DNA of 64,000 nt, taken from an uncultured bacterium. GTDB taxonomy: Bacteria > Patescibacteriota > Minisyncoccia > Minisyncoccales > RBG-13-42-11. This document shows, in pieces, positions 27,734-63,700 of the stretch. The position numbers and the translations under genes were made by a program. Where the stretch lies: assembly GCA_963790795.1 (NCBI GenBank), contig CAWBPO010000001.1, forward strand, positions 396,073 through 460,072, given 5' to 3'. The notes under the pieces were generated by a model. The model was not told the DNA's origin and did not search any database. It saw only the letters and a list, made by a program, of their open reading frames with translations. Every line of letters begins with the position of its first letter. Position 1 is the first letter of the stretch.

Positions 27734-28996
27734 TTATACCATCTTTTTAACTTTTGTCAATAGATAAGGAACTTTGTTTTCTTTTTTCGCTTTCTGCAAA
27801 CTCAGCTTTAAAGCGAGCAGACTTTCTTTTTTAGTCCCCACGCATTCAAAAGGCTTCGCTCTCCCCTGCCCTATTAAAGATTTCATTGTTGGTAGTAATC
27901 TTTTGTTTTCAAAAATATCTTTTCCAAAAATCAAAAGCAATTGTTTTTTATTTAAAAACGGATACAGAGTCAGATAAACAAACAAGCATTTCGGGCAGTT
28001 CCCGCACCACCTGACCTGTTTTGCCCCAATTCTCATGCTGGCATTGCAGCTGGAAAAAACTGGAAAATACTGAGGATATTTAATCAGCATTTTGGATATT
28101 TGAAGCTCAGTATATTTTCTTAAAAAACTGAAATAATTTACATTTTTTACCAGATATTTTTTGCAGTATTTTTTGAACATTATTTCAAATTGGGAGCTTT
28201 TTGCCCACTGGTGATTTATTGTTCTGCCAAGATACTTTACGTTTCCATCATTGGCGCTTTTTTCGTTTGAGAAAACAACATTTTTGTAATCAAACAAAAC
28301 AGCGCAAAAAACGCTCAAAAAAGACAAAAGCGCGGTAAAAGGAGTATGGCCGTTCAAGTATCCTTTCTTGTTCAGTTTTAAAAGTTTTTTGTCAATTATC
28401 CTTTTAACGATAATTTGTTTTTTTACGGCTGATACTTTAGCTGCTTTTTTGATCTGCTCGTTGGGGTTTACTAAAAACAAAGCTGTTTTTGATTTTTTAT
28501 TTAAAATCTCAAGAGTTACAATTGAATCCCTGCCTCCGGAAAAAGGCACCAAATACCTGTTTTTAAGCTTTCCGCTGAATGTCTTGTATTTATTCTTGCT
28601 TTCACATTCTATTGTTAGAAAGTTTTTAGATCGCCAGTCAATCTTGTTTTCGTAAAAAAACTGGCCCATGCCCTTAATAATCAAATCTTTCCACCAGCGG
28701 ATTTGCCCTTTATCCAAAAAACCAGCTTTGATGATAATTTTCGGAGAACAGGTTGCTTTCCAGTAAGTCGGAATTTCCATCAATCCTAAATGGAAAATCA
28801 AGTTTTCCAATATGTTGAAGTTAGACTTCAACAGGCTTGAGCGGCTTATATTTTTGATTTTTATTTCCGGTTTGAAATAAATATCAGGTTCGATTTTAAA
28901 ATCAAAAAAAACCTCTAAGTTGTTTCCAGAGATTCTGTAAGAATATTTCTCAAAAACAAACTTTGGATATTTTTTTATTAATTCTTGGAGTTTCAT
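27734..28996 (-). CDS. PP-loop (SGGxDS) ATP-pyrophosphatase-fold protein; candidate MurL-type UDP-MurNAc-L-Ala-L-Glu epimerase
   Basis: 420 aa; LVPFSGGRDSIVT PP-loop; C-terminal CGNCPKC; sits between mraY and murD. Confidence 0.5.
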   Translation of the reverse strand: MKLQELIKKYPKFVFEKYSYRISGNNLEVFFDFKIEPDIYFKPEIKIKNISRSSLLKSNFNILENLIFHLGLMEIPTYWKATCSPKIIIKAGFLDKGQIRWWKDLIIKGMGQFFYENKIDWRSKNFLTIECESKNKYKTFSGKLKNRYLVPFSGGRDSIVTLEILNKKSKTALFLVNPNEQIKKAAKVSAVKKQIIVKRIIDKKLLKLNKKGYLNGHTPFTALLSFLSVFCAVLFDYKNVVFSNEKSANDGNVKYLGRTINHQWAKSSQFEIMFKKYCKKYLVKNVNYFSFLRKYTELQISKMLIKYPQYFPVFSSCNASMRIGAKQVRWCGNCPKCLFVYLTLYPFLNKKQLLLIFGKDIFENKRLLPTMKSLIGQGRAKPFECVGTKKESLLALKLSLQKAKKENKVPYLLTKVKKMV

Positions 28997-32836: not shown

Positions 32837-35057
32837 TTATTTTATTGGTAGTTCTATATAAAACGTTGAACCTTTATTTTTGCCTTTTGATTCAGCCCAA
32901 ATTTTCCCCTTATTTAGTTCAATGAACTTTTTGGTAACATAAAGGCCGAGCCCGGCTCCTTCTGTCCAAAGTTTGGCTCCTGCTTTTCCTCTGGAAAAGC
33001 TTTCAAAAAGGTAGGAAAGTTCAGTTTTTGTCTATTCCTTCGCCAGTATCTGCAATAAAATTTGTAGTTTGTTCCCTGATCCTGGATTTTTACAGTAATT
33101 CCGCCTTTTGCCGTATAGCGAATGGCATTATCTATAATATTGACAATCGCTTGTTCGTTCTATCTTTATCGGCAAAAGCTTTGGGCAGAGCTTTTTTGGT
33201 TTTTCAACTTTAAATATATATTCTTTTTTTCAGTCAGCCCTTTTAATTCTTCAATAATGCTGATTACCATTTCTTCCAGAGAAAAGGTTTCTTTCTAATT
33301 TCGATTTTCCCGGCGTCAATCTTGGAAACGTTCAAAAGGTCATTAACCAATTTGATCAATCTTTCATTGGAGGAAAATATTTTTTATAGGAACGTTAATT
33401 TCTTCTTTAATTTGCCGTAGGCTTTCTCCAAAATCATTGAAATATATCCTTTAATTGCTGTCAAAGGCGTTCTTAATTGGTGCGAGGCGATGGAAACAAA
33501 TTCTGATTTTGCTTTGTCCAATTTTTTAAGTTGTTCGTAAGCTTCTTTCAATTCTTTAGTTGCTTTTTCCACCTCTTTTTCAAGTTTTTTGCTGAATCCT
33601 TGAACTTCAGAATATAATTTTGCGTTTTGTAGCGCAATTGATGCCTGATTTGAAAGATTGACTAAAAGATCAATGTCTTGTTCGAAATAAGGATCCCCTG
33701 AAATTTTATTTCCCAAAACAATCATCCCCATAATTTTCCCCTCAATTAAGAGCGGTAAACATAATGCCGCTTCAATTTTTTTCATATTTACCTGTAAGTT
33801 TTCCAATTTTTCTTTTTCTTCTTTAATTTGAGTATCTTTAATGACTAATGATAGTTCTTCATAAATTAATGGTTTTTGATTCTTTTCTAAATAAATAGTA
33901 AGAAAATTATCTTTTACTAAGGAAATTCCGTTTTCTTCTCTAAAACCTATATTCTTTTGAATTTTATAATCGCCATTACCTTCTTTTCTTATAAGCACAA
34001 CTGTTCTGTCTAATTTCATAGTTTCGATTAAAGTATCGACAATTAAAGAAGAAAGCTTGTCTAAATCCAAATATTGAGTCAATCTTTTTCCCAAATCTGA
34101 TAAGACTTTTTGATAGGAATAAAAAGTATAATGAAAATATTTTGAAGCTATTTTTTCAAAAAAATTAAAAACTGGCCGAAAAAGAAGAATGCTGATGATT
34201 AATATTAACGAATTAATAATTGCCGAAGATAATGTTGAAAAAAAATGATTACTAACAAATAGTAATAAAAAAGCTGATATTAAAATAGTAATAATAGAAA
34301 AAAGATATACCACTCCTTTTCCCAAAACAAAACGAACATCCATCAAGCGGTAACGAGATATAGCATATCCTAAAATAAATGGATAAAGAGGAACGAGAAA
34401 AGTTCCGAAGGGAGTCAAATGAATGCCAAACCATAAAGGTATATTCGTTGCTCCACCGCCTATCCCTAAGAAGGTACCTATAATTGTATATTTAATTTGT
34501 TCCCTTTTATATCCTTCCGTTTTTTTGTATGTTTTTAATAAAAGATAAAAACCATAACCCATAAGTCCTATATAATTTAAAATTACATAGGGATAAAAAA
34601 AAAGAAGGCCAGCTTTTGGCCACCATAAAAAATTCAATTCTGGTTCTACAGTTTTAACGAATAAAGAAGTTGGTAAAAACACAAGAAACAATAAGCTCAT
34701 AAAATAACCAAAATATAACGTTTTCTTTTTTTCTGTTTTAAGATTAGTTAAAACTAAAATCCAATGATAAAAAAATATAGGAATAAAAATAACTCCAGCG
34801 CTTAATGCTTTGGTCCAAAATAAAGCAGTTGTTTTGTCGGTTGAAATCTGCCACATGCCATAACTGAATCCCCATAATATTATTGATACACTTAATAATC
34901 CAAAAATTTTATTGATTTCTCTTTTTCTATTTTTAAAATAAACAAAAAGCCCCAGAATAAGACTTATAATTCCACTTATAAACCCCGATAAAGCATATAT
35001 AGACATAAAATTATAAAATAAAACGCTCCTAGAGAAAGTATTATTAGATAATAACAC
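32837..35057 (-). pseudogene. Sensor histidine kinase (7TM + GAF + HisKA + HATPase_c) with a degraded 3' third
   Basis: N-terminal 557-aa ORF is intact through the H-box SHQLRTPLTAIKGY. In-frame TAA at 33384-33386. The HATPase_c sequence (IDNAIRYTAKGG, DTGEGI, GAGLGLYVTKKFIELNKGKIW) is readable only by switching frames at least 4 times between 32837 and 33300. Confidence 0.8.
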
Positions 35058-36341: not shown

Positions 36342-37652
36342 TCAAGTTTTGAATTTTGAAGCCAACTGATATATGTCTCCAGCACCCATTATTATTAAAA
36401 CGTCAATTTCCTCAATATTGGCTTTAATATAATCAAACAGCTTTACTTTTGGCAGATAAACCACGTTTTTTCTTTTTATTTCTTTCACTAATTTTGCAGA
36501 AGAAACTTTCTTTTTGATGTTTTTCTCTTCCCTGCCTGCCACGTCAAAAACATCCGTAATAATTATCTTGTCCGCCGATGATTGCCTGAAAGCTTCTGTG
36601 AAATCTTTAAATAAATAATATGTTCTCTGATATTGGTGCGGCTGGAAAATGCACCAGATTTTGCTTTTCGGGAATTTCTCACGAGCTGCTTTTAATGTCG
36701 CTTTTATCTCGGTTGGATGGTGTGCATAGTCAGAGATAATTTTCAATTTACAATTTCCAATTTTCGAATTTTTTTCCTCAAAGCGCCGCCAAGACCCTTT
36801 ATACATTGAAAGGGCTTTAAAAGAGACTTTATCCGATATTTTCAAAACCCTGGCAACGGTCAAAGCGGCCAAAGCATTAGAAACATTGTGTTCTCCCGGC
36901 ACTTTGAGAATTTTCTTCAGCTTTTTCGCTTCGGGTTGCTTTAATGAATAATACTTTTTTGAGGCAAAACAAGCTATTTTTTTAATGTTTTTATCGTCTT
37001 TATTAGCAATGAGCAGTCCGTCTTTTGGCAAATGTAAAACATATTTTTTAAAAGCTTTAATAATGTTTCTAAGATTCTTGTAGTAATCCAGATGGTCTTT
37101 TTCAATATTTGTCAGAACTATTATTTTCGGCCAGTAATTCAAAAAAGAAGCAAAGTGTTCGTCAGCTTCAATAACCAGATATTTGCTTTTGCCGACCCGG
37201 CAATTGCCATTCTTGAATTCTTTCATTTTCGTGCCGACAATTATAGTCGGATCAAGACCAGCTTTAACCAATAACAACCCAATCATACAGGTAACGGTGC
37301 TTTTTCCGTGAGTTCCTGAAATGGCAATAGTATAATGTTGTTTCGTAAGTTCGCCCAGCGCCTGAGGATAACTCAAACATTTAATCCCCGCTCTTCTTGC
37401 GGCTTTTAATTCTAAATTGCTCTCTTTTACCGCTGGACTATACACCACCAAATCTATTTGTTGAGGATCGACCTCAACAGGCTTACCGATGCGTATTTTT
37501 GCGCGATTATTTTTTAGGGCGTCGGTAATCTCCGACCTAACTAAATCTGAACCGCTAACTTTGTGGCCTTTTTTCAAATAATATCTGGCTAGAGCGGAAA
37601 CACCGATTCCTCCGATGCCGATAAAATGGATTTTTAATTTTTTAGCGGGCAT
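36342..37652 (-). CDS. murC: UDP-N-acetylmuramate--L-alanine ligase MurC
   Basis: 436 aa; FIGIGGIGVSALA, ISGTHGKSTVTCM P-loop; contains palindrome copy c. Confidence 0.93.
   Translation of the reverse strand: MPAKKLKIHFIGIGGIGVSALARYYLKKGHKVSGSDLVRSEITDALKNNRAKIRIGKPVEVDPQQIDLVVYSPAVKESNLELKAARRAGIKCLSYPQALGELTKQHYTIAISGTHGKSTVTCMIGLLLVKAGLDPTIIVGTKMKEFKNGNCRVGKSKYLVIEADEHFASFLNYWPKIIVLTNIEKDHLDYYKNLRNIIKAFKKYVLHLPKDGLLIANKDDKNIKKIACFASKKYYSLKQPEAKKLKKILKVPGEHNVSNALAALTVARVLKISDKVSFKALSMYKGSWRRFEEKNSKIGNCKLKIISDYAHHPTEIKATLKAAREKFPKSKIWCIFQPHQYQRTYYLFKDFTEAFRQSSADKIIITDVFDVAGREEKNIKKKVSSAKLVKEIKRKNVVYLPKVKLFDYIKANIEEIDVLIIMGAGDIYQLASKFKT
37459..37479. repeat. Palindromic element copy c: TGTTGAGG-ATCGA-CCTCAACA, in frame inside murC (encodes VEVDPQQ on minus strand)
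   Basis: Read directly. Confidence 0.9.
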
Positions 37653-38201
37653 GATTCTAAAATATCATATTCTGGTCCTCCTTTTTTTAACTTGCTTTCC
37701 ATTACTTCAATGGAATTAACTTCAAAACTTAAACTGATTTCTTCATTAACTTCCGGCCTTTCCTCTAACTCCAATCGCCTGAATTCCCATGTTTTTATCC
37801 TTCCTAAATTAATGTGCGGGATGTACGGTCTAGCCTCGCTTTTTTCCGAGCCGCCGTAAAGTGAATTTTCAAGGTCTTTTTGCAAATCAGCCAATTCCTG
37901 GCTTTGCTTCCCCTTCCACCCAAACCATTCTGGGAGGCATCTTTTTCGGAGGACCGTAAATGATTTTGTTTAAGATTATTGAAAACGGTTTGTTTTTTGA
38001 AGAAATTTCTTTTGTCGCGTTGATAACTTCCAAAAGTTCTTCATCGTTCAAATAACCTAAGAAAACGAGAGTGATGTGCAGGTTTTCCTTTTTTGTCCAT
38101 CTAACAGGCAGATTTGGCCATTTTTCTTCGTATTCGGCCAGCTTTTTTTTAGTGTTTTCCGGCAGATTAACGGCGATAAAAATTCTGTGAGACATATTCA
38201 A
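37634..38201 (-). pseudogene. thpR: RNA 2',3'-cyclic phosphodiesterase / 2'-5' RNA ligase (ThpR/LigT, 2H family), frame interrupted once
   Basis: HITLVFLG and PHINLGR (two HxT/S-type motifs) lie in two overlapping ORFs; frames join at about 37896-37903 (...WVEGEAKP / ELADLQKDLEN...). Confidence 0.7.
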
Positions 38202-38302
38202 TAATCCATATTATCAGAATATGGCGAGGTTTACAATTTACTGAATTGTGATATATAGGAAACAGTTTTGCCACATATTAAATTAAGGAAAGGAGGTTTA
38301 AA

Positions 38303-39272
38303 GTGGCTCTTGATCTTTCACAAACTGTTTCTGAAGGATTAGCTTATTCAGCAGCTGAAAATACAGAGGAAGATTTGCATCTTACGCCGAGAAGAAACTG
38401 AGGCACTTATTAAAAGATACGGTATAGTGCTTCCGCCGACGCCTTTGCTCTCCCGGGAAGAGGAGCAGGATTTATTCCAGCAGCTGGAAAAACACCCAGA
38501 CGACGATTCAACCAGGAATAAAATCATAGAGTCAAACTTAAGACTGGTGCTTCACATTGCCTGGTTAAAGAAAAAGAAACTGCCGACCGGCATTCTGGAT
38601 GTGGACGATTTGTTCGGAGAAGGATATTTCGGCTTATTGCGGGCAATAGAGTATTTCGATTGGCGCCGTAATATAAGATTCTCCACTTACGCTTTCTGGT
38701 GGATAAATCAGACTATTTTCCGCGCCATTGAGAACTACGGAAACGTTGTCAGGATTCCCATTTATGTCCAAAAGACAATGAGGTATTACCGCAAGACTGA
38801 AAGCACTCTTAGCCAGGAATTGGGCAGATTTCCTTCTACTAAAGAGATTGCCGAGAGAATGGAGCTTTCTGCCGCCAGGTTGAATACATAAAGCAACTTC
38901 TTAATTTAAGGATAAGGATCTCTCTGGATAAACCATCAGAATGATGGCGATAATTCCGAAAGTAATGCCAGCTTGAAATTAGCTTCCATGAAGGCTGGCC
39001 GCGAAGATGATATCAATCCCGGATTTAGGGCCTTTATGAGGGAAGCCGTTTTAAACGCAGTAAACAGGTGCGTATCTTTATCTTTAAAGGAAAAAGAAGT
39101 AATACTGCTGCGCTACGGTCTGGATGATATAGGAAGGCCTCACACCCTTGAAGAGATCGGTAAGAAGTTTAATGTAACGCGGGAAAGAATCCGCCAAATA
39201 CAAGGTAGAGCCATAAGCAAGCTGAGAGCTGATCCAAATTTCGAAAAGTCGGTAAAGGACTTTGTCTTCTAG
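38303..39272 (+). pseudogene. Sigma-70-family RNA polymerase sigma factor (RpoD-like regions 2-4), at least 3 frame interruptions
   Basis: GTG 38303 with AGGAGG RBS. Region 2 (YFGLLRAIEYFDWRRNIRFSTYAFWWINQTI) and region 4 ([21 protein letters not shown]) are in different frames, with shifts near 38343-38399, 38878-38890 and 38930-38945. Confidence 0.75.
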
Positions 39273-39330: not shown

Positions 39331-40347
39331 ATGAAAGAAGCGTATTTGTACAAAAAACCAAACAGTCAGACAACGCAATGCCAGAATTGCGCCCACTATT
39401 GTGTTATTGAGCCAGGCAAACGGGGAATTTGCGGAGTAAGGGAAAATATAAACGGCAAGCTGTACGCTTTAAACTACGCAAAACTTGCTGCCTGCAACAT
39501 TGATCCAATTGAGAAAAAGCCGTTTTTCCATTTTCTGCCAGGCACTCGTTCTTTATCTATTGCCACTGTCGGCTGCAACTTAAAATGCTTGAACTGTCAG
39601 AACTGGGACATATCCCAGGAAGTTAAAGAAACAAAAGAAATTCCCGGAGATTACTTATTGCCGGAAGAAATTATTAAAATCGCTTTGAAAAACAAAGTAC
39701 CGAGCATTTCTTACACCTACACCGAACCAGCTGTTTTCTCAGAATATGCTTTGGATATCATGAAGTTAGCCAGAAAAAAAGGCCTGAAAAACGTTTGGGT
39801 AACCAATGGATTCTGGTCAAGGGAGCTCCTAGATTGGGTGTCGCCTTATCTGGATGCGGCAAATGTTGATTTGAAAAGCTTTTCTAATGAATTCTACATT
39901 AAAAACTGTGGCGCCAGGCTTCAGCCGATATTGGACAACTTGAAAAGATTGAAAAGAAAAAACATCTGGCTTGAAATAACCACTTTGGTCATTCCTACCT
40001 TGAGCGATTCAAAAGAAATGTTTAAAGACATTGCCAGATTTATTAAACAGGAATTGGGCAATGAAACTCCTTGGCATATCAGCCAGTTTTCCGGTGCCAT
40101 TTCATGGCAATTAAAAGATTTGCCGGAAACCTCAGTTGATACTTTAAAAATGGCTTATGAAATCGGAAAAGAAACCGGCTTGAAATACGTATATACTGGC
40201 AACGTTCCTGGTTTGCCAACAGAAGACACTTTCTGTCCTGAGTGCGGGACATTGGCGATTGACAGGACAGGTTATGCGATTTCGCGACACGACAAAAAAG
40301 GCAAATGTCAGAAATGCGGCGCAGATTTAAATTTAATTTTGAAATAA
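39331..40347 (+). CDS. amrS: AmmeMemoRadiSam-system radical SAM enzyme
   Basis: 338 aa; CNLKCLNCQNW (CxxxCxxC) cluster; N- and C-terminal Cys pairs; AMMECR1 and LigB/Memo-like genes nearby. Confidence 0.8.
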   Translation: MKEAYLYKKPNSQTTQCQNCAHYCVIEPGKRGICGVRENINGKLYALNYAKLAACNIDPIEKKPFFHFLPGTRSLSIATVGCNLKCLNCQNWDISQEVKETKEIPGDYLLPEEIIKIALKNKVPSISYTYTEPAVFSEYALDIMKLARKKGLKNVWVTNGFWSRELLDWVSPYLDAANVDLKSFSNEFYIKNCGARLQPILDNLKRLKRKNIWLEITTLVIPTLSDSKEMFKDIARFIKQELGNETPWHISQFSGAISWQLKDLPETSVDTLKMAYEIGKETGLKYVYTGNVPGLPTEDTFCPECGTLAIDRTGYAISRHDKKGKCQKCGADLNLILK

Positions 40348-41338: not shown

Positions 41339-41969
41339 ATGGTAAATTTAGTTTTCGCTGTCATATCCCCTCACCCGCCGATAATATTGCCATCGGTCGG
41401 CTCAAAGGAAGACAGAGAAAAAGTTAAAAAAACCATAGATAGCTTATATTCTTTGCGAAAGAAGTTTGTTGAGGTTAGATCCTCAACAGATTGTTATTTC
41501 TTCTCCTCATCCTGATTGGGGATTTGAAGTGCCTTTGTTTTTTCTAGCTAATGATTTTAAAGGAAAAATTGATAAAGTTTTAACCGGTTTGGAACCGCTA
41601 GAATTCTATTTCAAAGAAGGCAAAAGAATATATAATAATTTGGAAAAAGACAAAAAATACGCCATAATTGCTTCTGGAGACCTTTCTCATTGTTTAAAAG
41701 AAGACGGACCTTATGGATTAAACCCACAAGGTCCAAAGTTTGATGAAGAACTGATTGAATCTTTAAAAAAGAAAGATGTTGAAAACATTCTAAAACTGGA
41801 TGACAAATACCCTGAAGCCGGAGAGTGCGGTTTAAGGTCCATTTGTTTTTTATTGGGTATGCTGGAAGCCCATTCGACAAGCTCAGGGCAAGATTGGCAG
41901 CCAGAGATTTTATCGTATGAATCCCCTTTTGGCGTTGGATATTTAGTGGTAAATTTTAAATTAATATGA
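41339..41969 (+). pseudogene. Class III extradiol dioxygenase subunit B-like / Memo-like protein, frame broken inside palindrome copy d
   Basis: ATG 41339 gives MVNLVFAVISPHPPIILPSVGS...KKFVEV, then the frame shifts. Removing one nt of the 6-nt loop restores ...VEVRPQQIVISSPHPDWGFEVP...SGDLSHCL...SYESPFGVGY. Confidence 0.65.
41467..41488. repeat. Palindromic element copy d: TGTTGAGG-TTAGAT-CCTCAACA (22-nt variant)
   Basis: Read directly; loop is one nt longer than copy e (TTAGA). Confidence 0.9.
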
Positions 41970-42526
41970 ATCAATACGTTTCAATTGCTAAATCAGCCGT
42001 AGAAACATATATAAAAGAAAAGAAAGTTATTGAGCCATCGGAAATTCTGCCAAAAGAACTTTTTGAAAAAAGAGCAGGAGTTTTTGTCACCATTGAACAG
42101 GATAAAAAACTGCGAGGATGCATTGGCACTTATCTGCCGACTAAAATAAACATAGTTGAGGAGATTATCAATAATGCCATTGCCGCTGCCACTGAAGATT
42201 ACAGGTTTGAATCTATCAAAAAAGAGGAACTTCCCCATCTTTCTTATTCTGTATATATTTTAAGCGAACCGGAATTAGTTGAAAACACAAATGAACTGAA
42301 TCCGAAAAAATTTGGTATAATTGTAAAAACAGCGCCTTTTACCTATCCTAATGAAAATCCGGTGTTTGACGGTAATATTTCTTTTAAAGCAGGCGTTTTG
42401 CTTCCTGATTTGGAAGGAATCAATACGCCAGAAGAACAGTTTTCCATCGCCTGCCAAAAAGCAGGGATAAATCCGGAAAGAGAAAAAGTATTCATTTATC
42501 GCTTTACAACGGAAAAATGCCAATGA
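41966..42526 (+). CDS. amrA: AMMECR1-domain protein (AmmeMemoRadiSam system protein A)
   Basis: 186 aa; AGVFVTIEQDKKLRGCIGTY signature; ATGA overlap with upstream gene. Confidence 0.85.
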   Translation: MNQYVSIAKSAVETYIKEKKVIEPSEILPKELFEKRAGVFVTIEQDKKLRGCIGTYLPTKINIVEEIINNAIAAATEDYRFESIKKEELPHLSYSVYILSEPELVENTNELNPKKFGIIVKTAPFTYPNENPVFDGNISFKAGVLLPDLEGINTPEEQFSIACQKAGINPEREKVFIYRFTTEKCQ

Positions 42527-42978
42527 AAATAAGCAAAGAAAAAAAGAAATTAAAGAAGCAAAGAGAGGAAACAAAAATCCAGGAAATAGTCAATTGCTAT
42601 TTTTACAGCAAAGGTTTAAATTTGGAACAAATTAAAAAAGACGCAAAAAAGAAAAAAATAATCTATTCTCGCTTTACCAGACCGGCAAAACAGCTTTTGG
42701 AGCTGGCAGGCTCTGTCAGAAAAGCAAAGAATGCCGTAAATAAAGTGGCTGAATGGGCCAAGTCCCGGGGACTGGATTATGCCATTGAAACTGTTTTTAA
42801 AAAATGGCTGGAACTGGATAAATTAAAACCAAAAGAAATAGTGAAAAAGCCATATTTCCAGGGCAATTCCATGGTTTGGTCAGAATCCAAGAAAAAATGG
42901 TACGTCATTTCTCCTGAAAACGATTGGCTGGAGTTTGCCGGCAAGGAAGACGAAATAGAATGGCGCACTATTAAATGA
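42517..42978 (+). CDS. Hypothetical basic protein
   Basis: 153 aa; overlaps both neighbours (translational coupling); no motif recognised. Confidence 0.4.
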   Translation: MPMKISKEKKKLKKQREETKIQEIVNCYFYSKGLNLEQIKKDAKKKKIIYSRFTRPAKQLLELAGSVRKAKNAVNKVAEWAKSRGLDYAIETVFKKWLELDKLKPKEIVKKPYFQGNSMVWSESKKKWYVISPENDWLEFAGKEDEIEWRTIK

Positions 42979-43971
42979 TTTATATGCCCAAAAACATAAA
43001 ACCAAAAATAGTATTTATTGGGACGCCAGAATTCGGCGCCATTATTTTAGATAGGCTTTGTCAAAATGAATACAAGCCGGTTTTGGTTATAACGGCGCCA
43101 GACAAGCCAGTGGGCAGAAAACAGGTTATCACTTCTTCGCCAGTAAAAATTACAGCTCAAAAATATAAAATTCCAGTAGCCCAGCCGGAAAATATTCAAA
43201 ATTTAAAGTCAGAAATTAAAAAATTAAAACCTGATTTGGCAATTGTCGCAGCATACAGCCAGATAATTCCAAAAGACATATTAGACATTCCCAAATTCGG
43301 TTTTTTAAACGTTCATCCCTCTTTACTGCCAAAATACCGTGGTCCTTCCCCTATTCAATATGCAATTTTGAACGGAGACAAAGAAACAGGCGTGACAATA
43401 ATGTTAATGAATGAAAAAGTGGACAGCGGTAAAATTATTTCCACCTCTAAACTTTCCATTAAAGATGAAAAAATAACATCAGAGCAGTTAACTGAAAAAA
43501 CAGCTGACTCGGGAGCAAAATTATTGTTAAACACCATTCCAAAATGGATAAATTCTGAAATAAAGCCCATTCCCCAGGATGAGAAAAAAGCAACGTATAC
43601 TAAAATATTGAGAAAGGAAGACGGAAAGGTTGATTGGCAAAAATCAGCAAAAGAAATTGAAAGGAAAGTAAGGGCTTTCTTATCCTTGGCCCGGAACATA
43701 TACTTTTTGGCAAAACAATAGCAAAACAATGAAAATCAAGATTTTGAAAGCAAGAATTTTTAAATCGCCTCATTATAAACGCTATACTGTCGGCAAAGTT
43801 TTGGTTGTTCCCCAGAATGAAATCGGCGTACAATGCAAAGAAGATTTTCTGGTTATTGAAAAACTGCAAATGGAAGGCAAAAAAGAATTAAATGCGGAAG
43901 AATTCTTAAGAGGCTATTCTCGGTTTTGCAGGTTCAATTCTCAAATAATATGTTGTCGCATAACGATTTGA
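42975..43971 (+). pseudogene. fmt: Methionyl-tRNA formyltransferase, frame interrupted once
   Basis: IVFIGTPEFG and HPSLLPKYRGPSPIQYAIL motifs. RAF / YPWPGTYTFW junction requires a 1-nt shift at about 43677-43682, then continues in ORF 43729-43971. Confidence 0.8.
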
Positions 43972-47560: not shown

Positions 47561-48785
47561 TTATTCATATCTTAAAGCTTCAATCGGATTGAGTTTGGCT
47601 GCTTTTTGGGCCGGATAATATCCGAAGACAATTCCTATCAAAGCAGAAACGCCAAAAGCCAAAGCAATAGACCAAATTGAAATGCTGGTGCTGGTATCGC
47701 CGAATTTACTGATTGCAAAAGAAATAATGCAGCCCAAAATAACGCCGATTATTCCGCCGATAAAAGTAAGACTGGTTGCTTCTGAAAGAAACTGCAGACT
47801 GATATCTTTGTTTTTGGCTCCGACCGCCTTGCGAAGGCCGATTTCCTTTGTTCTTTCGGTTACTGTCGTTAACATCATGTTCATAATGCCGATGCCTCCG
47901 ACAAGAAGAGAAATTCCGGCAATCGCTCCCAGTAAAAGAGTCAATGTTCCTGTTACAGAAGACATGGTATTTAAAATATCTGCCTGATTCATTATGGAAA
48001 AATCTGCCGAGGTAGCGTCTGAAATATTATGCCGGTAAAGCAAAAGAGCTGCTAATTTGTTCTTGGGCGATTGACATGTATTTTTCACTTTGAACCTGAA
48101 CGTTAATCGTAGACACAGAATCGCTGCCCGATAAAAAACGCTGGGCAGTAGAAATGGGAATATAAATCCTGTCATCCTGGCTGCCGAATCCAGTGCCGCC
48201 CTTAGCTTCAGAAACGCCAATGACCGTAAAAGTAATTTTATTTATTTTGATTTTTTGCCCTACTGGATTTACGTTTTCTCCAAATAGATCTTCGCTGGTT
48301 GTTGGACCCAAAACTGCCACTTTTGACAAATTTGTTACATCCTGGTCGGAAATAAAAGCGCCCATATCCATTTCAAGATTTTTTACTTGGGTATAAGAAG
48401 AAACCGTGCCGATAACAGAAGTGTTGGTGTTTGTCCCTTTGGCTGTAACTTGGTATCTGCTTGAAACTTCCGGAGCGACAGCTTCAATAAAAGAAATTTC
48501 TGTTTCAATAGCAGAAGCGTCCTCCAAAGTGAGCGTTTGGGCAGAACCGCGGCCCGAACTTACTTGCGTGCCAACACCTCTCTGGAATCCCGGAGAAATC
48601 ATTAATAAATTTGAACCGATGGATTCAATGCTTTCTGTAACTGAGACCTGCGCTCCCTGGCCGATGGAAATCATGGCAACAACCGAACCTACGCCAATGA
48701 CAATGCCTAAAATCGTCAGACTAGACCTGGCTTTGTTGGAAATAATGGCAAAAAATGTTTCTTCAAATAAATCGCTAATAAGCAT
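47561..48785 (-). pseudogene. MacB-type ABC transporter permease (MacB_PCD + FtsX domains), frame interrupted once
   Basis: N-terminal half 48027-48785 and FtsX half (GGIGIMNMMLTTVTERTKEIGLRKAVGA) lie in different frames; junction at about 48035-48052. Confidence 0.8.
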
Positions 48786-48786
48786 A

Positions 48787-49494
48787 TTATTCTTTAATTT
48801 CTTGAGTCATTTTTGATTTGTCGGTTAAAACATCCTCAACAATCTCTCCGTCTTTAATGGCAATTATGCGTCTGGCTTTGCTTGCGATATATCTTTCATG
48901 GGTAATTAAAATAATCGTCCGGCCCTGCTTGTTCAAATTTTGAAAAGTTTCCAGGACGATTTCACCTGTTTTGCTGTCAAGATTTCCGGTCGGCTCATCG
49001 GCAAAAATTAAAGAAGGATTGTTTACAAGAGCCCTGGCAATGGCCACTCTTTGCATTTGTCCTCCGGAAAGCTGGTTGGAAAGATGGTGAAAGCAGGATT
49101 CGTCCAATCCCGCATCTTTAAGCGCTATTTTTGCCCGTTTTTCCCGTTCTTCTTTTGGAACACCCGCATAAATAAGGGGCAGAACAACATTGCGAATGAC
49201 CGATGTGCGTCGTAGTAAATTGAACGACTGAAAAACGAACCCTATTTTGTTTTTACGGATGTCAGCCAATTCGTCGTCTGATAAACGGGAAACGTCTTCT
49301 CCGTTAAAGAAATATTGGCCGCTGGTCGGAGTATCCAAACAACCTAAAATATGCATTAAGGTTGATTTTCCGGAACCCGAAGGCCCGATGATTGCCACGA
49401 ATTCGCCACTCTTGATTTTGAAAGAAACGTTTTTTAAGGCCTTAGTTTCAACATTTTCACTTTTGTATGTTTTGCTGATGTTTGAAACATTCAA
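48787..49494 (-). CDS. MacB/LolD-type ABC transporter ATP-binding protein
   Basis: 235 aa; Walker [10 protein letters not shown], signature LSGGQMQR, Walker B LIFADEPT. Confidence 0.92.
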
Positions 49495-53203: not shown

Positions 53204-53223
53204 AAAATCGCTACATTGGCGAC
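53194..53223 (-). repeat. 30-nt intergenic module copy 1 (hairpin + T6 + extended -10)
   Basis: Minus strand GTCGCCAATGTAGCGATTTTTTGTTAAAAT. Confidence 0.8.
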
Positions 53224-53321
53224 TTGTTGAGATGAAACCTTTTAACTCTTGACAACTCTTTATGTCTTGCTATAATTATAATAGTTTTACAGTACGTCCC
53301 GGCGCAAGCTGGGGCGGTTTT

Positions 53322-53901: not shown

Positions 53902-53931
53902 TATTTTAACAAAAAATCGCCCTAATAGCGA
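53902..53931 (-). repeat. 30-nt intergenic module copy 2
   Basis: Minus strand GTCGCTATTAGGGCGATTTTTTGTTAAAAT; directly abuts palindrome copy e. Confidence 0.8.
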
Positions 53932-53932
53932 C

Positions 53933-53953
53933 CTGTTGAGGTTAGACCTCAAC
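53933..53953. repeat. Palindromic element copy e: TGTTGAGG-TTAGA-CCTCAACA (intergenic)
   Basis: Read directly. Confidence 0.9.
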
Positions 53954-53967
53954 AAAGACTTATTTTA

Positions 53968-55095
53968 TTATTTTAGATATTTCTTGCCTTTCAGCCGTTC
54001 CGGCAGATAATTCTCTTGGGAATATTTTTCATATCCTTTTCCGTAATCCAGCTCTTCCATAAGCTTTGTTTCCGGATTTCTTAATTTCAAAGGAATAGGC
54101 AGGTTGCCGTATTGTTTTACGTCTTTCATCGCAGCCATATAGGCATTGTATGAACTTCTGTTTTTTTTGCATTGGCAGAGGTAGACAACGCCGTGAGCCA
54201 GATTGATGCCGCATTCAGGCAAGCCAATTATTTCTACGGCTCTGAAAACGTCATTAGCCACAACCAAAGCAGTGGGTAAGGCTAGTCCAATGTCTTCTGA
54301 GGCGAAAATAACCATTCTTCTGGCAATAAACTTTGGATCTTCTCCGGAATCAATCATCCTTGCCAAATAATATAAGGCGGCATCCGGTTGACTTGCTCTC
54401 ATACTTTTAATAAAAGCTGAAATGGTATTATAATGCTCTTCCCCTTTTTTATCATATCTTAAGAACTTTGACTGAAGAGTGTTTTTTAAGCTTTCTACGG
54501 TGATTTCGTCATAAAACTGGTGCGTGCTTTCAAGTATTGTAATAGCCTGTCTGGCGTCTCCGTTAGCCATGGCAACCAGCCAGTCTTTTGCTTTTTTGTC
54601 CATTTTAAATCCGGTTCGCTTAATAATGGCCAGTATGTCTTTTTTCGAGAGTTCATTTAAAACAAAAACCCGACAGCGGGAAAGCAAAGGCGGAATTACT
54701 TCAAAACTTGGATTTTCTGTCGTAGCGCCGACAAGAGTTATTTCTCCTCTTTCAACAAACGGAAGCAGATAATCCTGCTGGGACTTGTTGAAACGATGAA
54801 TTTCATCAAGAAATAAAACCTTAGGATGGCCTTTTGTGTCTTCGTTAACGATTTTTTTAATGTCAGGTTTGCCAGCTGAAACAGCGGACAGTTCATAGAG
54901 TTCGGCATCTAAACTCCTGGCATATATTTTTGCCAGAGTTGTTTTTCCCGAACCAGGCGGTCCCCAGAGAATAAAGGAAAAGAGGTGTTTTTGTTTTGTG
55001 GCGATATTTAAAGGTTTTCCTTCCCCAACCAAATGTTCCTGTCCCTTAAATTCTTTCAGGGTTTTTGGCCTTATTTTTGAAGCTAACGGTTCCAT
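53968..55095 (-). CDS. rarA: Replication-associated recombination protein A (RarA/MgsA AAA+ ATPase)
   Basis: 375 aa; [11 protein letters not shown] Walker [12 protein letters not shown] Walker B, MgsA C-terminal region [23 protein letters not shown]. Confidence 0.9.
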
Positions 55096-55110: not shown

Positions 55111-55140
55111 ATTCTAACAAAAAATCGCCACATTGGCGAC
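55111..55140 (-). repeat. 30-nt intergenic module copy 3
   Basis: Minus strand GTCGCCAATGTGGCGATTTTTTGTTAGAAT, 15 nt upstream of rarA ATG. Confidence 0.8.
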
Positions 55141-55154
55141 AGAAAAGGATAAAC

Positions 55155-55228
55155 TGAAAAAAGGCGAGAAGAAAAACCAGAATGGAACAGATGTTTCCTC
55201 CACTCCTCTGCTAGTCTCACTCCTCGCC
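55155..55228 (-). ncRNA. Candidate small hairpin RNA or leader (about 74 nt)
   Basis: TTGACT-16-TATATT promoter (55262-55235); transcript folds as GGCGAGGAG...CTTCTCGCC long hairpin followed by TTTTTT. Confidence 0.3.
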
Positions 55229-55308: not shown

Positions 55309-55977
55309 TTTTTCTTTTTCAACCTTTATATGGTTTGTTATTTCTTTCTGTTGCTCCAGAAAATTAATCCTGCGATAAGAACCAAAGCGATTATCAGCCA
55401 AACCCACCATAAAGAATTGCCTTTCTGAGTTTCTTCAGGAGTTTGTTCGGTAGTTCCCGGTTCTTCTGCAGTCAAAACTTCCTCTTCAGGCTGTATTTCT
55501 TCTGTTCCAGTAGCCTTCTGATTCAGTCTCTTCTCCTAAAACTTCTCCAGTTTTCCCTGTATAACCAATCCAATCTGCTAAAAGATCAGGCATGGGTATG
55601 TTAAGAGAAGGACATTTCAGAAGGTTAATCCATCTTTTAGTTGTTTTATAAACATAGCCTGTAGGAACGTTTTCATCGTTATGCAGTCCGACTTGCACCC
55701 AAGGCCTCAAAACCTGTTCTTTGTAAGCTAATTGGAACTGGTTTACGGCGTTTAAGGTCGCTTCGTCGTAAATGCCGTTTACAGCCAAGTTAGCTCCCAT
55801 GAACTCATTTAAGAACATCTGCAGTTTCATTACTTCTGCCGGGTCATTATTAGCTCCGTATTTGATGTATTGGAGCAGATATATGCCGCAGGTCATGCCT
55901 TCAGTAGTTGTTGCTTCACCTAAAACTCTACCTTGAGTTGCTACATATCCTCCTGGGTATCCTCCCCCTCCTTCTGA

Positions 55978-56169
55978 TTGACAGGTTGCTGAACAACCAT
56001 CACCACTTGTGTTATTACCGTCATCACATTGTTCGCCGCCATTCAGAACTCCGTTTCCGCAAACTGATCCTGTTTGTTCCAGCTGACAGGTTGCAGAACA
56101 ACCATCGCCATTTGCAGTATTACCGTCATCACATTGTTCGCCAATTTCCACAGCTTCATTTCCGCAAAC
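55978..56169 (-). repeat. Two tandem Cys-rich CGNG...CDDGN...DGCS..C repeats (coding)
   Basis: aa 742-770 and 777-805 of ORF 55486-58392 are near-identical. Confidence 0.8.
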
Positions 56170-56496
56170 TGGTCCTCCTTCTGATTCCTGATAATAATTC
56201 AGGAAATACACTTCAGGATCAGGAGTTTCGCCATCAATAGTTGCTGTTTGAGTGCTGGATGCCGGAAAAGAGCGGACCCAATTTTCCGGATTGTCTTCTG
56301 TTATAGAATATTCTCCGTAAGGCAAGCCAGGGTTTGTTACACAGCCAGTGTCTCCATTAGTTGCTGTGTACAAAGTGCCTTGGTCTGGATATATAACCGT
56401 CATCTCCCATGCCAAAGGAGTATCAATACCTTCTTCATACTGGCCGATATTTCCCTTATCTTCATATTTACAAATCGTTAACGAGCCAGTGGTTGG

Positions 56497-56883
56497 TTGA
56501 CAATCTGTATCTGCAGCGTCTGTATATCCATCGCAATCATCATCTAAATCATTGTCGCAGATTTCTGGAATGGGTTGATTGGTTTGTACACATTCTTCCC
56601 AAAAACCATTCTCGCCACAGGTTTGAGTGCCTGCAGAACAAATACCCGAACCACTAGCTTCACAAGATTGAGTTGCTTGGGGTGCACATTGCTGGCAATC
56701 GGTATCTGCGGCATCTGTGTAACCATCACAATCATCGTCTAATTGGTTGTCACAGATTTCTGGAACGGGTTGATTGGTTTGTTGACAACTTCCCCAGAAA
56801 CCTGATTGATCACAGGTTTGAGTGCCTGCAGAACAAATACCTGGTTGACCAGTTTCGCAAGGTTGAATGGCTTCAGGCGTACA
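56497..56883 (-). repeat. Tandem duplication of a 65-aa (195-bp) Cys-rich module (coding)
   Basis: aa 504-567 versus 568-632; DNA blocks about 195 bp apart are visibly near-identical (...GTATCTGC.GC.TCTGT.TA.CCATC.CAATCATC...). Confidence 0.85.
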
Positions 56884-59513
56884 TTCAGGAATTGCATTGT
56901 TCTCACACTGACAAGTATCTAAATTACAAACATCAGCAGTATTTGGATTTTGGTCATCACAATCTGCATCGCTTTCACAATCGCCACATTGATTATCACA
57001 AGTATGAGTTATTGTTTCATCTCCTGTTGAACATATACCATTTGGTTCCTGACATTCAGAGATAAATGAATCTCTGTAATCCCATGTGTAGGGATTACAA
57101 TCTGGATCATAACCACACGTAGTTACTCCAAAGATATTATTACTTGAACAATCTACTAGCGTACCCGGGACACATTGGGCTGTACTACAAGTCTCTTGAC
57201 CATTACAAGCTAAACCATCATTACAGTCCTGAACAACTGTAGTATTTGCAACACACGCATAATTAGTACATACTCCTTCGTCGTGTTTTATTGCAGTTCC
57301 ATCACAGTAATCTTGGTTTAATTTATTACAATCATCATCTGTCTGACATTCTGTACAGGCGGAAGCATTATAAGATATTTCTGGTTCTCCGCAGGAATTA
57401 TTTGTACAAGTACAATCTTCTAGGCAAGTATTACTTACATCGCTGTAAGTGTAGTAATCATTACCCTGACAACCGTTTTGCGTATGGCAAATTGTGTCTG
57501 CGCACAAATGTGTTGCATCACATTGAGCTCCACATTGACCTACGTCGCAAGTGTGAGTTATTGTTTCATCACCAGTGGTACAACTATCGGTGTCTTCGTT
57601 ACATTGACTTTCAAAGATGTTTCTGAAATCCCAAGTAAAGTTGCAATTATCAGGATCATTTAGGCAGGTTGCTATGTCGTTAATATTATTACTTGAACAA
57701 CTTACCGGCGTTCCATCAACGCAAGCACCGCCGACACATGTTTCTTGGCCGTTACAATATAAATAATCGTCACAATCTAAATCGGTGGCACATTCTGGCA
57801 CAGGTGAATTATAGAAAATGCAAGATATGATATTATCAGTTCCAACCTGGACTCCCGTCACGCCATTCTGCGTCGGACTGCCACTGTTAGTGACGCCGCT
57901 ACAGCTAGCGTCAATAAAATAGTAACCACTAACGGTTCCAGTTTCAATAACATCGTAAGTGCCGTTTGACAGTTCTACGGCTGCAGTCTGTCCGTAAATG
58001 TCCGTTATCTCGCCGCTGTAAGTGCCGATGTTAAAAGTCCAGCCAAGTCCGCCGTTAGTCTGATCACCGGTCGTTTGTAAACTGCCATCAGCATCAATTA
58101 TCTTAGTCACAGTAATCGTACCTCCGCAGAGCTGGGTCGCTAATCCTTGAAGTGCAGTGGCTAATTCTCCAAAATTAGCAACGCTGTAATATGCATCTGC
58201 GCTGGAAATAGCTTGCAAATTAGCCGGTACCACATCAGAACCGATACCCAAAGTAATTATGCGGGTGCCGTAACCCTTAATAATGTTAGCTTGGGCTATG
58301 GCTGCATTTAAAGACGCTTGATCAAATCCGTTACCAGGTCCTTGATTGGGATTATATTTATTAGGATTACCGTCAGAAGAAAAAATAATCAAATTTGGAA
58401 CTCATGTTTGCTGATCAAAAGTATTTTGAGATTTGATTAATCCACTTTCCAATTAGTATAGCCACCGCTTGCAATAGCAGAGCTGTCAATAGTAATTTTA
58501 ACCGCATTTGGATCGGAGGTAAATAACTGTCGTACCGTAGCCGTGGTGTCAAAATCTGTCACAGAAAACTGAGTCGGCGTTACCGACACAGTATCCACAA
58601 ATCCTTTGAAAGCGTTCTTCATCTGGGTAAGCTCGGTGCTACTAATACTACCAGAGCTATCCAAAACCAAAGCAACGTCTAAACCGCAGGATTGACCCAG
58701 TTGCGGATTTTGGATAGGTTCAGTGTAGTAGACTTTCGCTCGCAAATGATCCAAAGAGACCGTTGAGTTGTCGCATGAACCACTTGATACGTCATCATAA
58801 GAAACTCTGGCTACAAAGTTAGCATTAGTAAATTCGCCCGCTGACCAAGTTCTGCTCCACGTATCTGAATTACTACCCAATGTATAAACAACATCGCTTC
58901 CGCTCATACCGGCTGTTTTCATGCCAGTGTAAGTTGAACCGTTATTCCACGAAAGCGCCACTTCAATCCGGAAACCGCTCGTATCTGAAGATTTAGCTTC
59001 TGCAGTCACTTCAATACCATTAATTGTTGAGCTGACGGGAATAACAGGAAAGCCAAAGTTAGAATATCCTTGCTCAGCGCTTTCAGAATTCGCTGTCGCG
59101 TATTGATCGTTGCTAGAGAATGCGTTAGTCGCACTACTCCATCCGTTTGGAGAATGAGTGCTAGTGGGCGAATAAAATCCCGTATCTGCCGCAAAAGCTG
59201 TTTGCGGAGTCAACATTAAAATCGGCATTGCTATATAACCGACCATTGCCGCAATCATAAACCATGAGTTTGCGGTTTTTAAAACTTTGAATTTTTTTAC
59301 TTATCATATATTTTTTTTGTTAATTATCGTTGAACGACTATTCAACGTTAAATTAATAATACGATTAATTAAAACGATAAAAAAACCACCATTCTAATTT
59401 CCTTTTGAAAATTAGGATACTAGTTTTGAAAAATTACCTCCTATATAATCTTTCGCAACGTATAAACGTGTCTAATTCAAAATAACACACCGATAATCCT
59501 TGTCAAGTTTCTC

Positions 59514-60781: not shown

Positions 60782-63700
60782 TTATTGGCTTACACTTTCT
60801 TCTAAAATTGCTGCGCTTTCTAATTCTGCTGGAGCTGTACTGTCGCTAATAGCACTGTCAGTAGAATTACTAATTTCAGCTTCGCTACTTTTTGGAATAT
60901 CACCTTCAGGATTCTCGATTGTATTATCTTCAGGTACAGCAATTACTTCAGTTTCAGAGCCGGGGGATTTTCAATGGTTCAATAATTGGAATTTTTCTTC
61001 AATAATTGGTTGTTCTTCAATAACGGAGCTTCACGTTTCCTGGTTATTTCTTCGATTATTGGTTCTTCGATGGATGGTACAGTTTCCGGGAATATTTCTT
61101 CAACTATCCATCTATTATTTCGTTTAATATCTCATCAATTATTCCCTTCTTCTTGATATGGTTCGGGGATAACTTCTTCTTCAATAAGATATTCTTCTTC
61201 AATAATTTTTGGTTCCTCAAATTTCTTCCACATAAGGAACAACAAACATATTATTTGGTTTTCCTGGTGTTGGTTCTGGATCAACCCAGTTTTCCGTGCC
61301 GTCGGGTATGCGGGCAAAAGATTTATTTTCAGGAGCTCCGCCTGCGTAATCATAATCATGAAAATCAACTAATGTTCGGTTGAGATTTGGTCGTCATAGA
61401 GTCTTACGGTATCTGAAGTATTATCTAAATCAAAGTCAGCATCGCCGTCACGATAAACCACGAAATAGCCGCCAGCAGGAATAGTAGTTCCTCCGGTATT
61501 GGTATTGGCTGAAGTAATTAAAAGTTCATGAGTATTTTCTGCATCGTATAAAGCCCAGCCGTTAACATCTACTGTAGTATTTGTACCGTTATATAGTTCA
61601 ACCCATTCGCCGTCATGCGGCTCGCCAATATTTCCAGTTTCACCAGAAATAGAATAATAAACATTCGCCCTTAACCAATCTAGATTAGTTGTTGCTCCAC
61701 CAGTACAGGAATGAACACGAGCTCGGAAAGCAGAATTGATTTCTGCAAGCGTCCAAGCATGTTCCACAAATCGGAAGCTGTGCCCAAGGTGTAAGTTGTT
61801 TGAGCCCCTGTAAGCGTTTGTGTTTTTTCCGGACTTGTCCAACTCGTCCCACCATTCCAAGATAAATCTACACCAAGCTCACAAGCGGAACAGGGCTGTT
61901 CACTGGAAACTGAAACGCCGTCAATGCGGAAATTTTCATCTGAAGCGCTAACATCAGTATTCCTAAATCTGATACTGAAAGTAGAATTATTCAAACTAGC
62001 GGGTAAACCAATTGTTTGAAGCGAACTCCAAGAAGACGAATTTGTATCATTATCATCAAGTTCGTAACTTACAAGAGTTACAAGACCCGCAGGAGAATCG
62101 CATGAGCCTCCGGTATAATACTGAACGTCACCCACTTCTCCGTTTTCAGCATCGCTATCGCCTCTCCAATAATACTGTAAAAAAAGATTACTTAGTTCTG
62201 TGGCATTTACGGAACGACAAATCCACTCATTCTCACCAATAAAGGCAAATCTCTCGCCATCGGGGCTTGCACTATCATCCCCGCTTCCGGCTATTTGGGC
62301 ACGGGTTGAAGAATCGCCATCATCGCCTTGCTCTTCCCAATTAGGAATATCATTAGAATTACTACCACTTGTACCAAAATTATCAGACCAAATATTTGAT
62401 AAAGGTGCGGCTGACCATGCATCCGCGCTAACTTCAATTCCGTCGATCATCGCCGAACTTGGAATGTTGAATCCAAAATTATAATATTGGTGTTTATCGC
62501 TTTGATTATCCGTAGCCGGAGGACTACCACCGTCAGTATAAGCATTACCCGCATTATTCCACCCATCGCCAGTCCCAATTGCGTTAGCGGTTGGAGAAAT
62601 AACTCCTGTGTTGTAAGGACCAGCAGGAATTGTGTAATAAACCTTTATTTGTGCTTGGTCAACATATGTTGTACCACTACAATCGCCACCCGGATCAATA
62701 TCCTCTAAACGCATAACGAAATTCGCGTCGGAAAATTCTGTTATTAACCAAGAATGACCCCACAAATCACTAGAGGGAACCAAGTGTATATATAGTATCT
62801 GATCCGCTTAGATTTTGTTTTGTGTTGCGTAAGAAGAACCGTTATTCCAAGAAAGATTGACGCCCACTTGGCATCCGGGAAGGATCGGAGGAGCGTGTTT
62901 CAATCTGCACCTCCAAGCCATTAATTATAGCACTAGTAGGAATACCAAATCCGAAAATGGGAATAACCCTGCTGATCCTCGTCGTTATCGTTTACATAAC
63001 TATCATTGCTTGTTTGGATATTACCAACTGTTCTAGTATCCCAATCGTTTGGTGAGTGGATAGATGTAGGAACTTCAAATCCACTATCTCCACCAATTCC
63101 CGTATCCGGAACATTCGGGACGAATTCGTTGATTACCACCCGATTTAAATCTATAAATTGCGGACCGCAAGCGGCTTCCGAAGGAAGCGTACCATCGGTA
63201 CTTGTCGCCTCCCAAGTAATTGTTTGTCCGGCAATAACCCAATGAACATTTATGCTCATATGATCAACGGAAACGTATCTGAACCCTGCTGATCGTGCTC
63301 TGCCGCAAATACAGCACCGAAGTTAGTGCTTATTTATATCAGAAGGAGACCATGTGGTGCCCCAAGTATCACCAGATCCGCCATAAATTACAGGCGTTTC
63401 TGCGGTTCCCCATTGATCCCCAATCGCCTTGTCATCTCCCACTATTCCACTGTTTTCTCTTAACTTAACAATGTTATCTCTTACTTCGTCATAGTGAGTT
63501 ACTTTCCTTTCAACACGCAATTCTATACCGTAATGGTTGCTTCAGTGGATACATTAAAAGCAAAACCAGTTGTTTGGAGATAATCACTGTGTCCACTACT
63601 GCCAATATTTACTGTCGCATAGCTATCATCTGAATGCATACGTATTGGCAAGAGATGACCAACTAACGCCACTGCTGTTATCAACGTTCGCACTCGCGCT

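Follow-up and report, generated by a model that had tools for sequence, protein, structure and literature searches.

The Rickettsia palindromic elements (RPE) are selfish palindromes that are translated inside genes, where they form insertions of about 100 to 150 bp and add tens of residues to the protein. Hairpins are also known mutational hot spots through quasipalindrome template switching, a process that is reportedly described by the Ripley model and that Lovett and colleagues are said to have investigated in E. coli. Background on the RPEs can be found in PMC1779305. HIP1, from cyanobacteria, is an 8-bp contiguous palindrome that occurs about once per gene; it is embedded by substitution and conserved beyond codon needs, and its mechanism is described as unresolved (PMC5861425). 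In the accounts of Elhai et al. (2008) given in PMC3116915 and PMC5861425, the cyanobacterial small dispersed repeats (SDR) are 21 to 27 nt long and are described as insertions. REP/REPIN elements are mobilised by RAYT transposases (PMC3116915, PMC3733652), and the REPs lie outside genes and are marked by a GTAG or CGTC tag (PMC3733652).

Here, we describe a family of short palindromes in a 64-kb window (that is, the whole stretch of DNA that was analyzed) from a CPR bacterium. The family resembles RPEs, REPs, HIP1/SDR, and the products of quasipalindrome correction, but it departs from each of them in one defining property. Like RPEs, the palindromes were in frame within conserved coding genes and were compatible with function; unlike RPEs, the unit was 21 nt and produced no net insertion at four of the five coding sites. 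Like HIP1 and SDR, they were very short, lineage-specific repeats within coding regions; unlike HIP1 and SDR, they consisted of an 8-bp stem, a free 5-nt loop, and an 8-bp stem, they occurred about once per 9 kb, and the host was a CPR bacterium. Like REP/REPIN elements, they were short, hairpin-forming, lineage-specific repeats with many dispersed copies; unlike REP/REPIN elements, five of the seven copies were coding, their flanks were unrelated, and they had no tag. One copy was 22 nt long and split a LigB-family gene, and the origin of its extra base is the main subject of this work.

Results

The 22-nt palindrome splits a LigB-family gene

A first-pass annotation of this DNA had claimed that a 22-nt variant of the palindrome is exactly what breaks a LigB/Memo-like gene. 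Our analysis bore this out: the copy at 41467-41488 (Table 1) had a perfect 8-bp stem, and its 6-nt loop was the exact cause of the loss of frame. As had been described, the ORF layout placed the end of the upstream ORF (58 aa) at a TGA stop at 41513-41515, and the remainder of the protein continued one frame over, up to 41969. When T41480 was removed, a 209-aa ORF reading ...KKFVEVRPQQIVISSPHPDWG... was obtained, which agreed with the continuous protein of about 210 aa that had been anticipated, and it matched Pfam LigB (PF02900) at 1e-25 and Memo weakly. Coding did require the 21-nt form of the palindrome. HSPs from 56 orthologue proteins fell in two frames and met at about 41470. The repaired protein had 6,034 homologues, mostly of 201-215 aa and from Nealsonbacteria/Paceibacteria-type CPR bacteria, and the best intact homologue was 88-90% identical. 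The observed 6-nt loop and frameshift were confirmed. A 166-aa protein (P0008) from a public contig of 538,786 bp was the same as the window ORF when the latter was read from its TTG codon at position 41469; the break is thus present in the public deposit as well.

Table 1. Palindromes, cluster genes, and broken genes located in the 64-kb window
Feature	Position	Strand	Remarks
Palindrome family copy, loop ACTAA	1977..1997	.	Intergenic, 3 nt past the stop of lysS and 10 nt upstream of the serS ATG
Variant copy GGTTGAAG-ACGAA-CTTCAACA	5555..5575	+	In DegT-family gene (VEDELQQ); 0 aa change relative to PDB homologues
Palindrome family copy, loop ATCGA	5675..5695	+	In DegT-family gene (VEDRPQQ); +4 aa relative to distant PDB homologues
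Compensated variant TGTTGAAG-TTAGA-CTTCAACA	28813..28833	-	In MurL-like gene; 0 aa relative to 5 orthologues
Histidine kinase	32840..35057	-	About 7 alternating 1-nt deletions/insertions over about 560 nt, most of them in runs of A or T
Palindrome family copy in murC	37459..37479	-	VEVDPQQ
LigT	37634..38210	-	1-nt insertion in GAAGCAAAGC
Sigma-70-family gene	38343..39272	+	Deletion and insertion about 60-70 nt apart
AmmeMemoRadiSam radical SAM enzyme	39331..40347	+	Intact; TIGR04337, 326 bits (cut-off 220)
LigB-family gene	41339..41969	+	+1 insertion; 'protein B' position of AmmeMemoRadiSam-type cluster
LigB-like gene, upstream ORF	41339..41515	+	
LigB-like gene, downstream ORF	41466/41469..41969	+	
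22-nt palindrome TGTTGAGG-TTAGAT-CCTCAACA	41467..41488	+	LigB-like codons 43-49 plus one surplus base in or beside the loop
AMMECR1/AmmeMemoRadiSam protein A	41966..42526	+	Intact; TIGR04335, 124 bits (cut-off 99)
fmt	42975..43932	+	1-nt insertion in TTCTTATCCT; Formyl_trans_C in next frame
MacB-type permease	47561..48806	-	1-nt insertion near T4 run; MacB_PCD and FtsX in different frames
Palindrome family copy, loop TTAGA	53934..53954	.	Intergenic; lies between the gene 53968..55095 (-) stop and that gene's terminator-like hairpin
LTD-domain surface protein	61369..62783	-	1-nt deletion near TGGAACATG

The frame could be restored, with both stems kept, by the loss of any one of five bases in GTTAGAT, and the possible repairs read V-D (twice), V-N, V-S, or V-R. 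The earlier claim that a base deletion restores the frame was upheld, but the peptide given for it, VEVRPQQ, is one of several because five alternative one-base repairs are available. Possibly a single T was read as TT, in which case the true loop would be TAGAT and the encoded peptide VEVDPQQ, as in a distant lineage with about 75% identity (see below). The VEVRPQQ and VEVDPQQ repairs are equally possible. The longest run at the indel site was TT.

The 'Memo-like/protein B' label of the gene was poorly supported. The scores of the LigB-like protein were below the cut-offs of TIGR04336 (21 bits, cut-off 26) and Memo PF01875 (23.5, cut-off 27) and above that of LigB PF02900 (90.7, cut-off 26.3); thus, the Memo assignment is weak, and it is a LigB-family protein that occupies the B position. 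The remainder of the AmmeMemoRadiSam cluster, to which the first-pass annotation had drawn attention, proved sound. The partner genes were intact in the window, and in relatives the radical SAM, LigB, and AMMECR1 genes were intact and in unchanged order. In one relative (L088), the cluster had two additional genes ahead of AMMECR1.

Two accessory features of the cluster were also observed. A PurM/AIR-synthase-like gene (40399-41328) lay between the radical SAM and LigB genes and had a homologue in 2 of the 92 related loci. It was 92.6% identical to the copy in L014, and the LigB protein of L014 was only about 69% identical; recent horizontal transfer of the PurM-like gene is suggested by the sequences. 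In L089, a gene with a weak LAGLIDADG_3 match (4810-5709) lay between LigT and the radical SAM gene and filled the slot that is held in the window by the accessory sigma gene.

The palindrome lies over native codons

The in-frame palindrome had previously been treated as an element, that is, as an insertion. This could not be sustained, because the seven codons aligned with their orthologues without a gap. VEVRPQQ was gap-free in an alignment of 26 homologues (consensus KKLxExxPQxIIISSPHP), and the same codons were gap-free at the DNA level in about 70 related loci, so the palindrome overlays native codons and adds none. The AlphaFold model of sister protein P0001 (pLDDT 90.8) has the corresponding residues at the C-terminus of helix 23-46 and in the turn of three residues that leads into strand 50-55, just before the invariant His57.

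These findings bear on programmed recoding, in which the ribosome would shift by +1 at the hairpin or hop over it and the 22-nt form would still be expressed. Although removal of all 22 nt also restores the frame, this is trivial, since 22 = 21 + 1. The site GTT AGA T CCT lacked a slippery or hungry-codon motif, an in-frame stop, a shift motif of the prfB type, and an SD-like stimulator upstream. In addition, the frameshift was missing from every orthologue, all of which were in frame, and homology of the seven codons to native residues indicates that they are translated, not skipped. We regard recoding as hardly credible.

Other one-base indels occur in the same half of the window

The break had also been presented as special to the palindrome. 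This was contradicted by the finding of at least 14 additional single-base indels in the half of the window that contains the LigB-like gene, which were mostly in homopolymer runs and all lay between 32.8 and 62 kb (at least 15 with the LigB-like gene). Seven or eight genes in 32840-62783 were broken, including the LigB-like gene. Seven of the indels were assigned to the histidine kinase gene, two to the sigma gene, and one each to the LigT, fmt, MacB-type permease, and LTD protein genes; a possible additional indel was located at 59.7 kb, in gene 59514-60763. The indels were identified via orthologue HSPs in two frames (38 orthologues for LigT, 22 for fmt, and 10 for the kinase), Pfam domains split between frames, and frame tracing. 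For example, the HisKA match of the kinase ended at position 30 of the 66 profile positions, and HATPase_c was in another frame. In the sigma gene, the stretch between the two indels was readable as 22 residues in another frame. For the first 32 kb, the ORF layout gave no sign of broken genes.

Most of the further indels were in A/T homopolymer runs, and none was in a palindrome. An association with homopolymers or with deletion/insertion pairs was observed for the kinase, LigT, the MacB-type permease, and probably sigma, with close pairs in the kinase and sigma genes, whereas the LigB site had just TT. Insertions outnumbered deletions over the whole set (about 9-10 versus 5-6), contrary to the bias toward deletions that bacterial pseudogenes would be expected to show. 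Each broken gene was otherwise intact and conserved; for example, the last 64 aa of the kinase were 72% identical to an orthologue. Taken as a whole, 32840-62783 looked like a low-quality consensus. Because at least 14 similar one-base indels break nearby genes, we consider the extra base in the LigB-like gene to be most likely an error as well.

A link to methylation motifs was tried and rejected. The extra T creates a GATC and a CCAGG lies near two of the indels, but the relationship was inconsistent between sites.

The palindrome belongs to a family in the window

The pattern TGTTGAGG-N3-9-CCTCAACA occurred five times in the window and in none of 100 shuffles. Two further copies had compensated stems (TGTTGAAG...CTTCAACA at 28813 and GGTTGAAG...CTTCAACA at 5555), in which G-to-A and C-to-T changes were symmetric, for a family total of seven; the loop was 5 nt in all six copies other than that of the LigB-like gene. 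The stems covaried (two GAAG/CTTC copies, none mixed, p = 0.02), and lone half-sites were at chance level, which points to a hairpin or copied unit rather than independent half-sites. On the same grounds, a DNA uptake sequence or operator-like half-site was rejected. In the other open frame, the copy in the MurL-like gene read LLKSNFN. The murC copy was in a variable loop and was 1 aa shorter than most of about 45 orthologues.

We considered whether the palindrome is a tiny mobile element of the RPE, MITE, or REP type that was inserted in frame, with the 22-nt copy as a faulty insertion. The seven copies with identical or compensated, covarying stems in 64 kb, their spread over unrelated genes and spacers, and their absence from the relatives outside the orthologous LigB site (see below) all favored this idea, which predicts added length and insertion marks. 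The net length change relative to orthologues was instead 0 aa for LigB, the MurL-like protein, and DegT copy 1 and -1 aa for MurC, only DegT copy 2 was longer (by 4 aa, relative to distant PDB homologues), and no target-site duplications, shared flanks, or GTAG/CGTC tags were found around the copies. Furthermore, quasi-palindromes were present at matching positions in relatives (L154, L088, and L090). Insertion of a mobile element is therefore a doubtful explanation, and the pattern looked like the overwriting or perfecting of pre-existing sequence.

Searches outside the window gave little. The palindromes had no match in Rfam, in which the only window match was a tRNA at 12914-12986, and a literature search for palindromes within CPR genes found nothing specific. 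A scan of IMG/VR gave 63 single matches, which were at chance level beyond one phage gene. About 40 of these contigs (among L091-L153), all marine viral, shared the conserved gene start M..LQKMFVEDAPQQV (MFVEDAPQQV), and the DNA of this gene contains the palindrome TGTTGAGG-ATGCA-CCTCAACA. They appear to represent one homologous phage gene that is unrelated to the CPR palindrome family.

Several other repeats were noted in the window. A 47-nt intergenic repeat occurred at 53194-53240, 53903-53949, and 55111-55157; it includes a hairpin that resembles a terminator (TCGCC-N5-GGCGA and then a run of T on the minus strand). One of these copies is directly adjoined by the palindrome at 53934, and after the copy at 53194 comes a degenerate half-palindrome, TTGTTGAGATGAAACC. 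A second mini-repeat, CCATTCGACAAGCTCAGGGCAAG, was located within the LigB-like gene (41870-41892) and in murD (26258-26277, minus strand). Its translation is AHSTSSGQ in one frame and PFDKLRAR in the other, and it is a 12-nt net insertion relative to the sister L001. L088 and L089 had its core, TTCGACAAGCTCAGGGCAAG, and the preceding 5 nt (CCCAT) unchanged at this site, and L020 had them with one mismatch; near-copies were found in murC-homologous stretches of L008 and L009. Finally, the 968-aa gene 55486..58392 (minus strand) contained internal repeats in tandem, of about 100 nt at 55979-56176 and about 195 nt at 56498-56885, that were 78-83% identical.

The same sites in relatives

In the closest relative (L001-L003, 90% aa identity), the palindrome site read CTTATTGAAGTTGTCCCTCAGCAG and had no hairpin. 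The stability of the site as DNA was -0.5 kcal/mol in this sister, compared to -8.3 kcal/mol for the 21-nt form and -7.0 kcal/mol for the 22-nt form (z = -4.5 as single-stranded DNA). The window and sister were identical across the 53 nt upstream of the patch and differed at 2 of the 43 nt downstream. Differences were packed into the palindrome: 7 of the 26 patch columns differed (indel included) versus 2 of 96 flank columns (Fisher p = 2.6e-4).

This pattern was reminiscent of quasipalindrome template switching, since substitutions and a 1-nt indel were confined to the inverted repeat, the clustered changes raised its complementarity, and matches to the family consensus rose from 13 of 16 in the sister arms to 16 of 16 in the window. 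Relatives also had imperfect versions at the same sites; at the murC site of L154, the left arm was the same as in the window copy and the right arm matched at 6 of 8 positions, and L088 and L090 were similar. However, the sister arms are TATTGAAG and CCTCAGCA, and neither would template TGTTGAGG/CCTCAACA. Self-templating also leaves unexplained why seven loci have one common stem sequence.

The exact palindrome was also present at the orthologous LigB site of a lineage with only about 75% aa identity, represented by L004 and JGI contigs L085-L087. In all four contigs, the palindrome was 21 nt, in frame, with the loop TCGAT and the peptide VEVDPQQ. A site-specific scan of JGI metagenomes recovered only this lineage, always with 21 nt, and a genome collection with one representative per species contained none closer than 81%. 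No other copy of GTTGARG-N4-7-CYTCAAC was found elsewhere in 1.15 Mb from the 92 related loci.

The first-pass annotation had offered three readings of the break: recent inactivation, a slippage-prone switch, and a sequencing indel. The evidence favored the sequencing indel, and the idea of a slippage-prone switch tied to the palindrome found no support. A reversible on/off switch (phase variation) would require that the population toggle between 5- and 6-nt loops, and a toggle between 21 and 22 nt would indeed turn the gene on and off. All that spoke for it was that a +1 change happened to fall in a structured repeat. The switch point had no simple-sequence repeat and no homopolymer tract beyond TT, in contrast to contingency loci, and an intracellular LigB-family enzyme is unlike the known loci of this kind. 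Moreover, the loop was 5 nt in all six other window copies and all four orthologous copies. A switch is thus very improbable.

Other hairpins and palindromes were observed in the relatives. At the LigB site homologous to 41460-41495, differing strong hairpins were present in L013/L014/L089, L007, L018/L022, L017, and L049 (e.g., ATTGA..GAGG-N5-CCTC..TCAAT and AATTGTGC-N13-GCACAATT). Nine of 69 sequences, from about five lineages, had z < -2 compared to synonymous shuffles. A family-wide conserved mRNA hairpin at the palindrome codons was rejected as a general feature, as the mean z for the 69 sequences was -0.1. Other short perfect coding palindromes were found in L013, L015, L029 (7418), L050 (3561), L054 (8395), and L061 (6055). 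Those of L013 (TGTTTAAAG-TCGAA-CTTTAAACA) and L015 (TTAGCGAGAA-CTG-TTCTCGCTAA) were in the murC loop that also contains the window copy. One stem, A[GA]CGAGAA...TTCTCG[CT]T, recurred in the genomes of several relatives. These observations suggest that coding palindromes are common in this clade.

Discussion

The comparisons presented here suggested that the extra base is probably a sequencing or assembly consensus indel and that the LigB-family gene is intact in the organism. According to this explanation, the gene would be a normal one of about 209 aa in which codons 43-49 happen to spell a 21-nt perfect palindrome, and the 22nd base would be a single-base insertion in the deposited consensus. 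The organism would then make an intact LigB-family protein that works with intact radical SAM and AMMECR1 partners. In the stretch from 32.8 to 62 kb, where the broken genes are well conserved apart from the indels, the homopolymer bias, deletion/insertion pairs, and excess of insertions form an error signature. Furthermore, the frameshift was not conserved, the segment tolerated no indel in about 70 orthologues, and the cluster was intact in relatives.

The indels of the window resembled long-read or homopolymer-sensitive assembly errors in several respects. Single-base indels split conserved genes in only part of the single 538,786-bp contig, A/T runs were favored, and deletion/insertion pairs were close together. 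Unlike such errors, and unlike most of the other indels, the change at the LigB site was in a TT dinucleotide and not a long run. The identical base in the public deposit also counts against an error; no second assembly of the species was present in the protein database or the contig collections. In addition, the calculated random chance that one of about 15 indels falls in the 64 nt of palindrome in the 31-kb half was about 3%, so the hairpin may be a hot spot. Such a hot spot may fit sequencing trouble and in vivo template switching equally well.

The other reading that had to be weighed was that of a genuine, recent +1 insertion, which would make the gene a young pseudogene and might stem from hairpin-mediated template switching or replication slippage. 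The presence of the base in the deposit, the status of hairpins as mutational hot spots, the small chance that an indel strikes a palindrome, and the clustering of the differences from the sister in the palindrome were all in keeping with a real mutation. It is plausible that most of the broken genes are dispensable, which is compatible with real gene decay; at this locus, both the sigma gene and the PurM-like gene are accessory, and a sigma homologue was found in only two or three of the 92 related loci. On the other hand, fmt was broken as well, the at least 14 other indels had an error-like signature, and the LigB-like gene and its partners showed no further decay. The N-terminal residues H12, P13, and P14 of LigB are invariant, so that the split would leave a dead product in a system that is otherwise kept intact. 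A young pseudogene is thus rather unlikely, and readings of the break as a switch or a pseudogene are probably wrong.

There is also the idea that undescribed 21-nt palindromic cassettes of CPR (Nealsonbacteria-like) bacteria overwrite coding stretches of the same length and recur at the same codons in separate lineages, with the 22-nt copy as an in vivo by-product. Such overwriting would perhaps occur by hairpin-templated synthesis or gene conversion. We hold this reading to be improbable.

If the extra base is a consensus error, as we prefer, then the LigB-family gene and its AmmeMemoRadiSam-type cluster are best scored as intact, and the region from 32.8 to 62 kb of the contig is unfit for claims of pseudogenes or gene loss without reads. 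The frameshift itself is of little consequence. The more interesting part is the lineage-specific palindrome family over coding sequence, with its genome-specific perfect 8 + 5 + 8 structure, its compensated stem variants, and its occurrence at the same LigB site in a lineage with about 75% identity. If the cassette reading were true, palindrome turnover would actively inactivate genes. If a process of active copying or perfecting is at work, it would be a new route for short repeats to spread in very compact CPR genomes.
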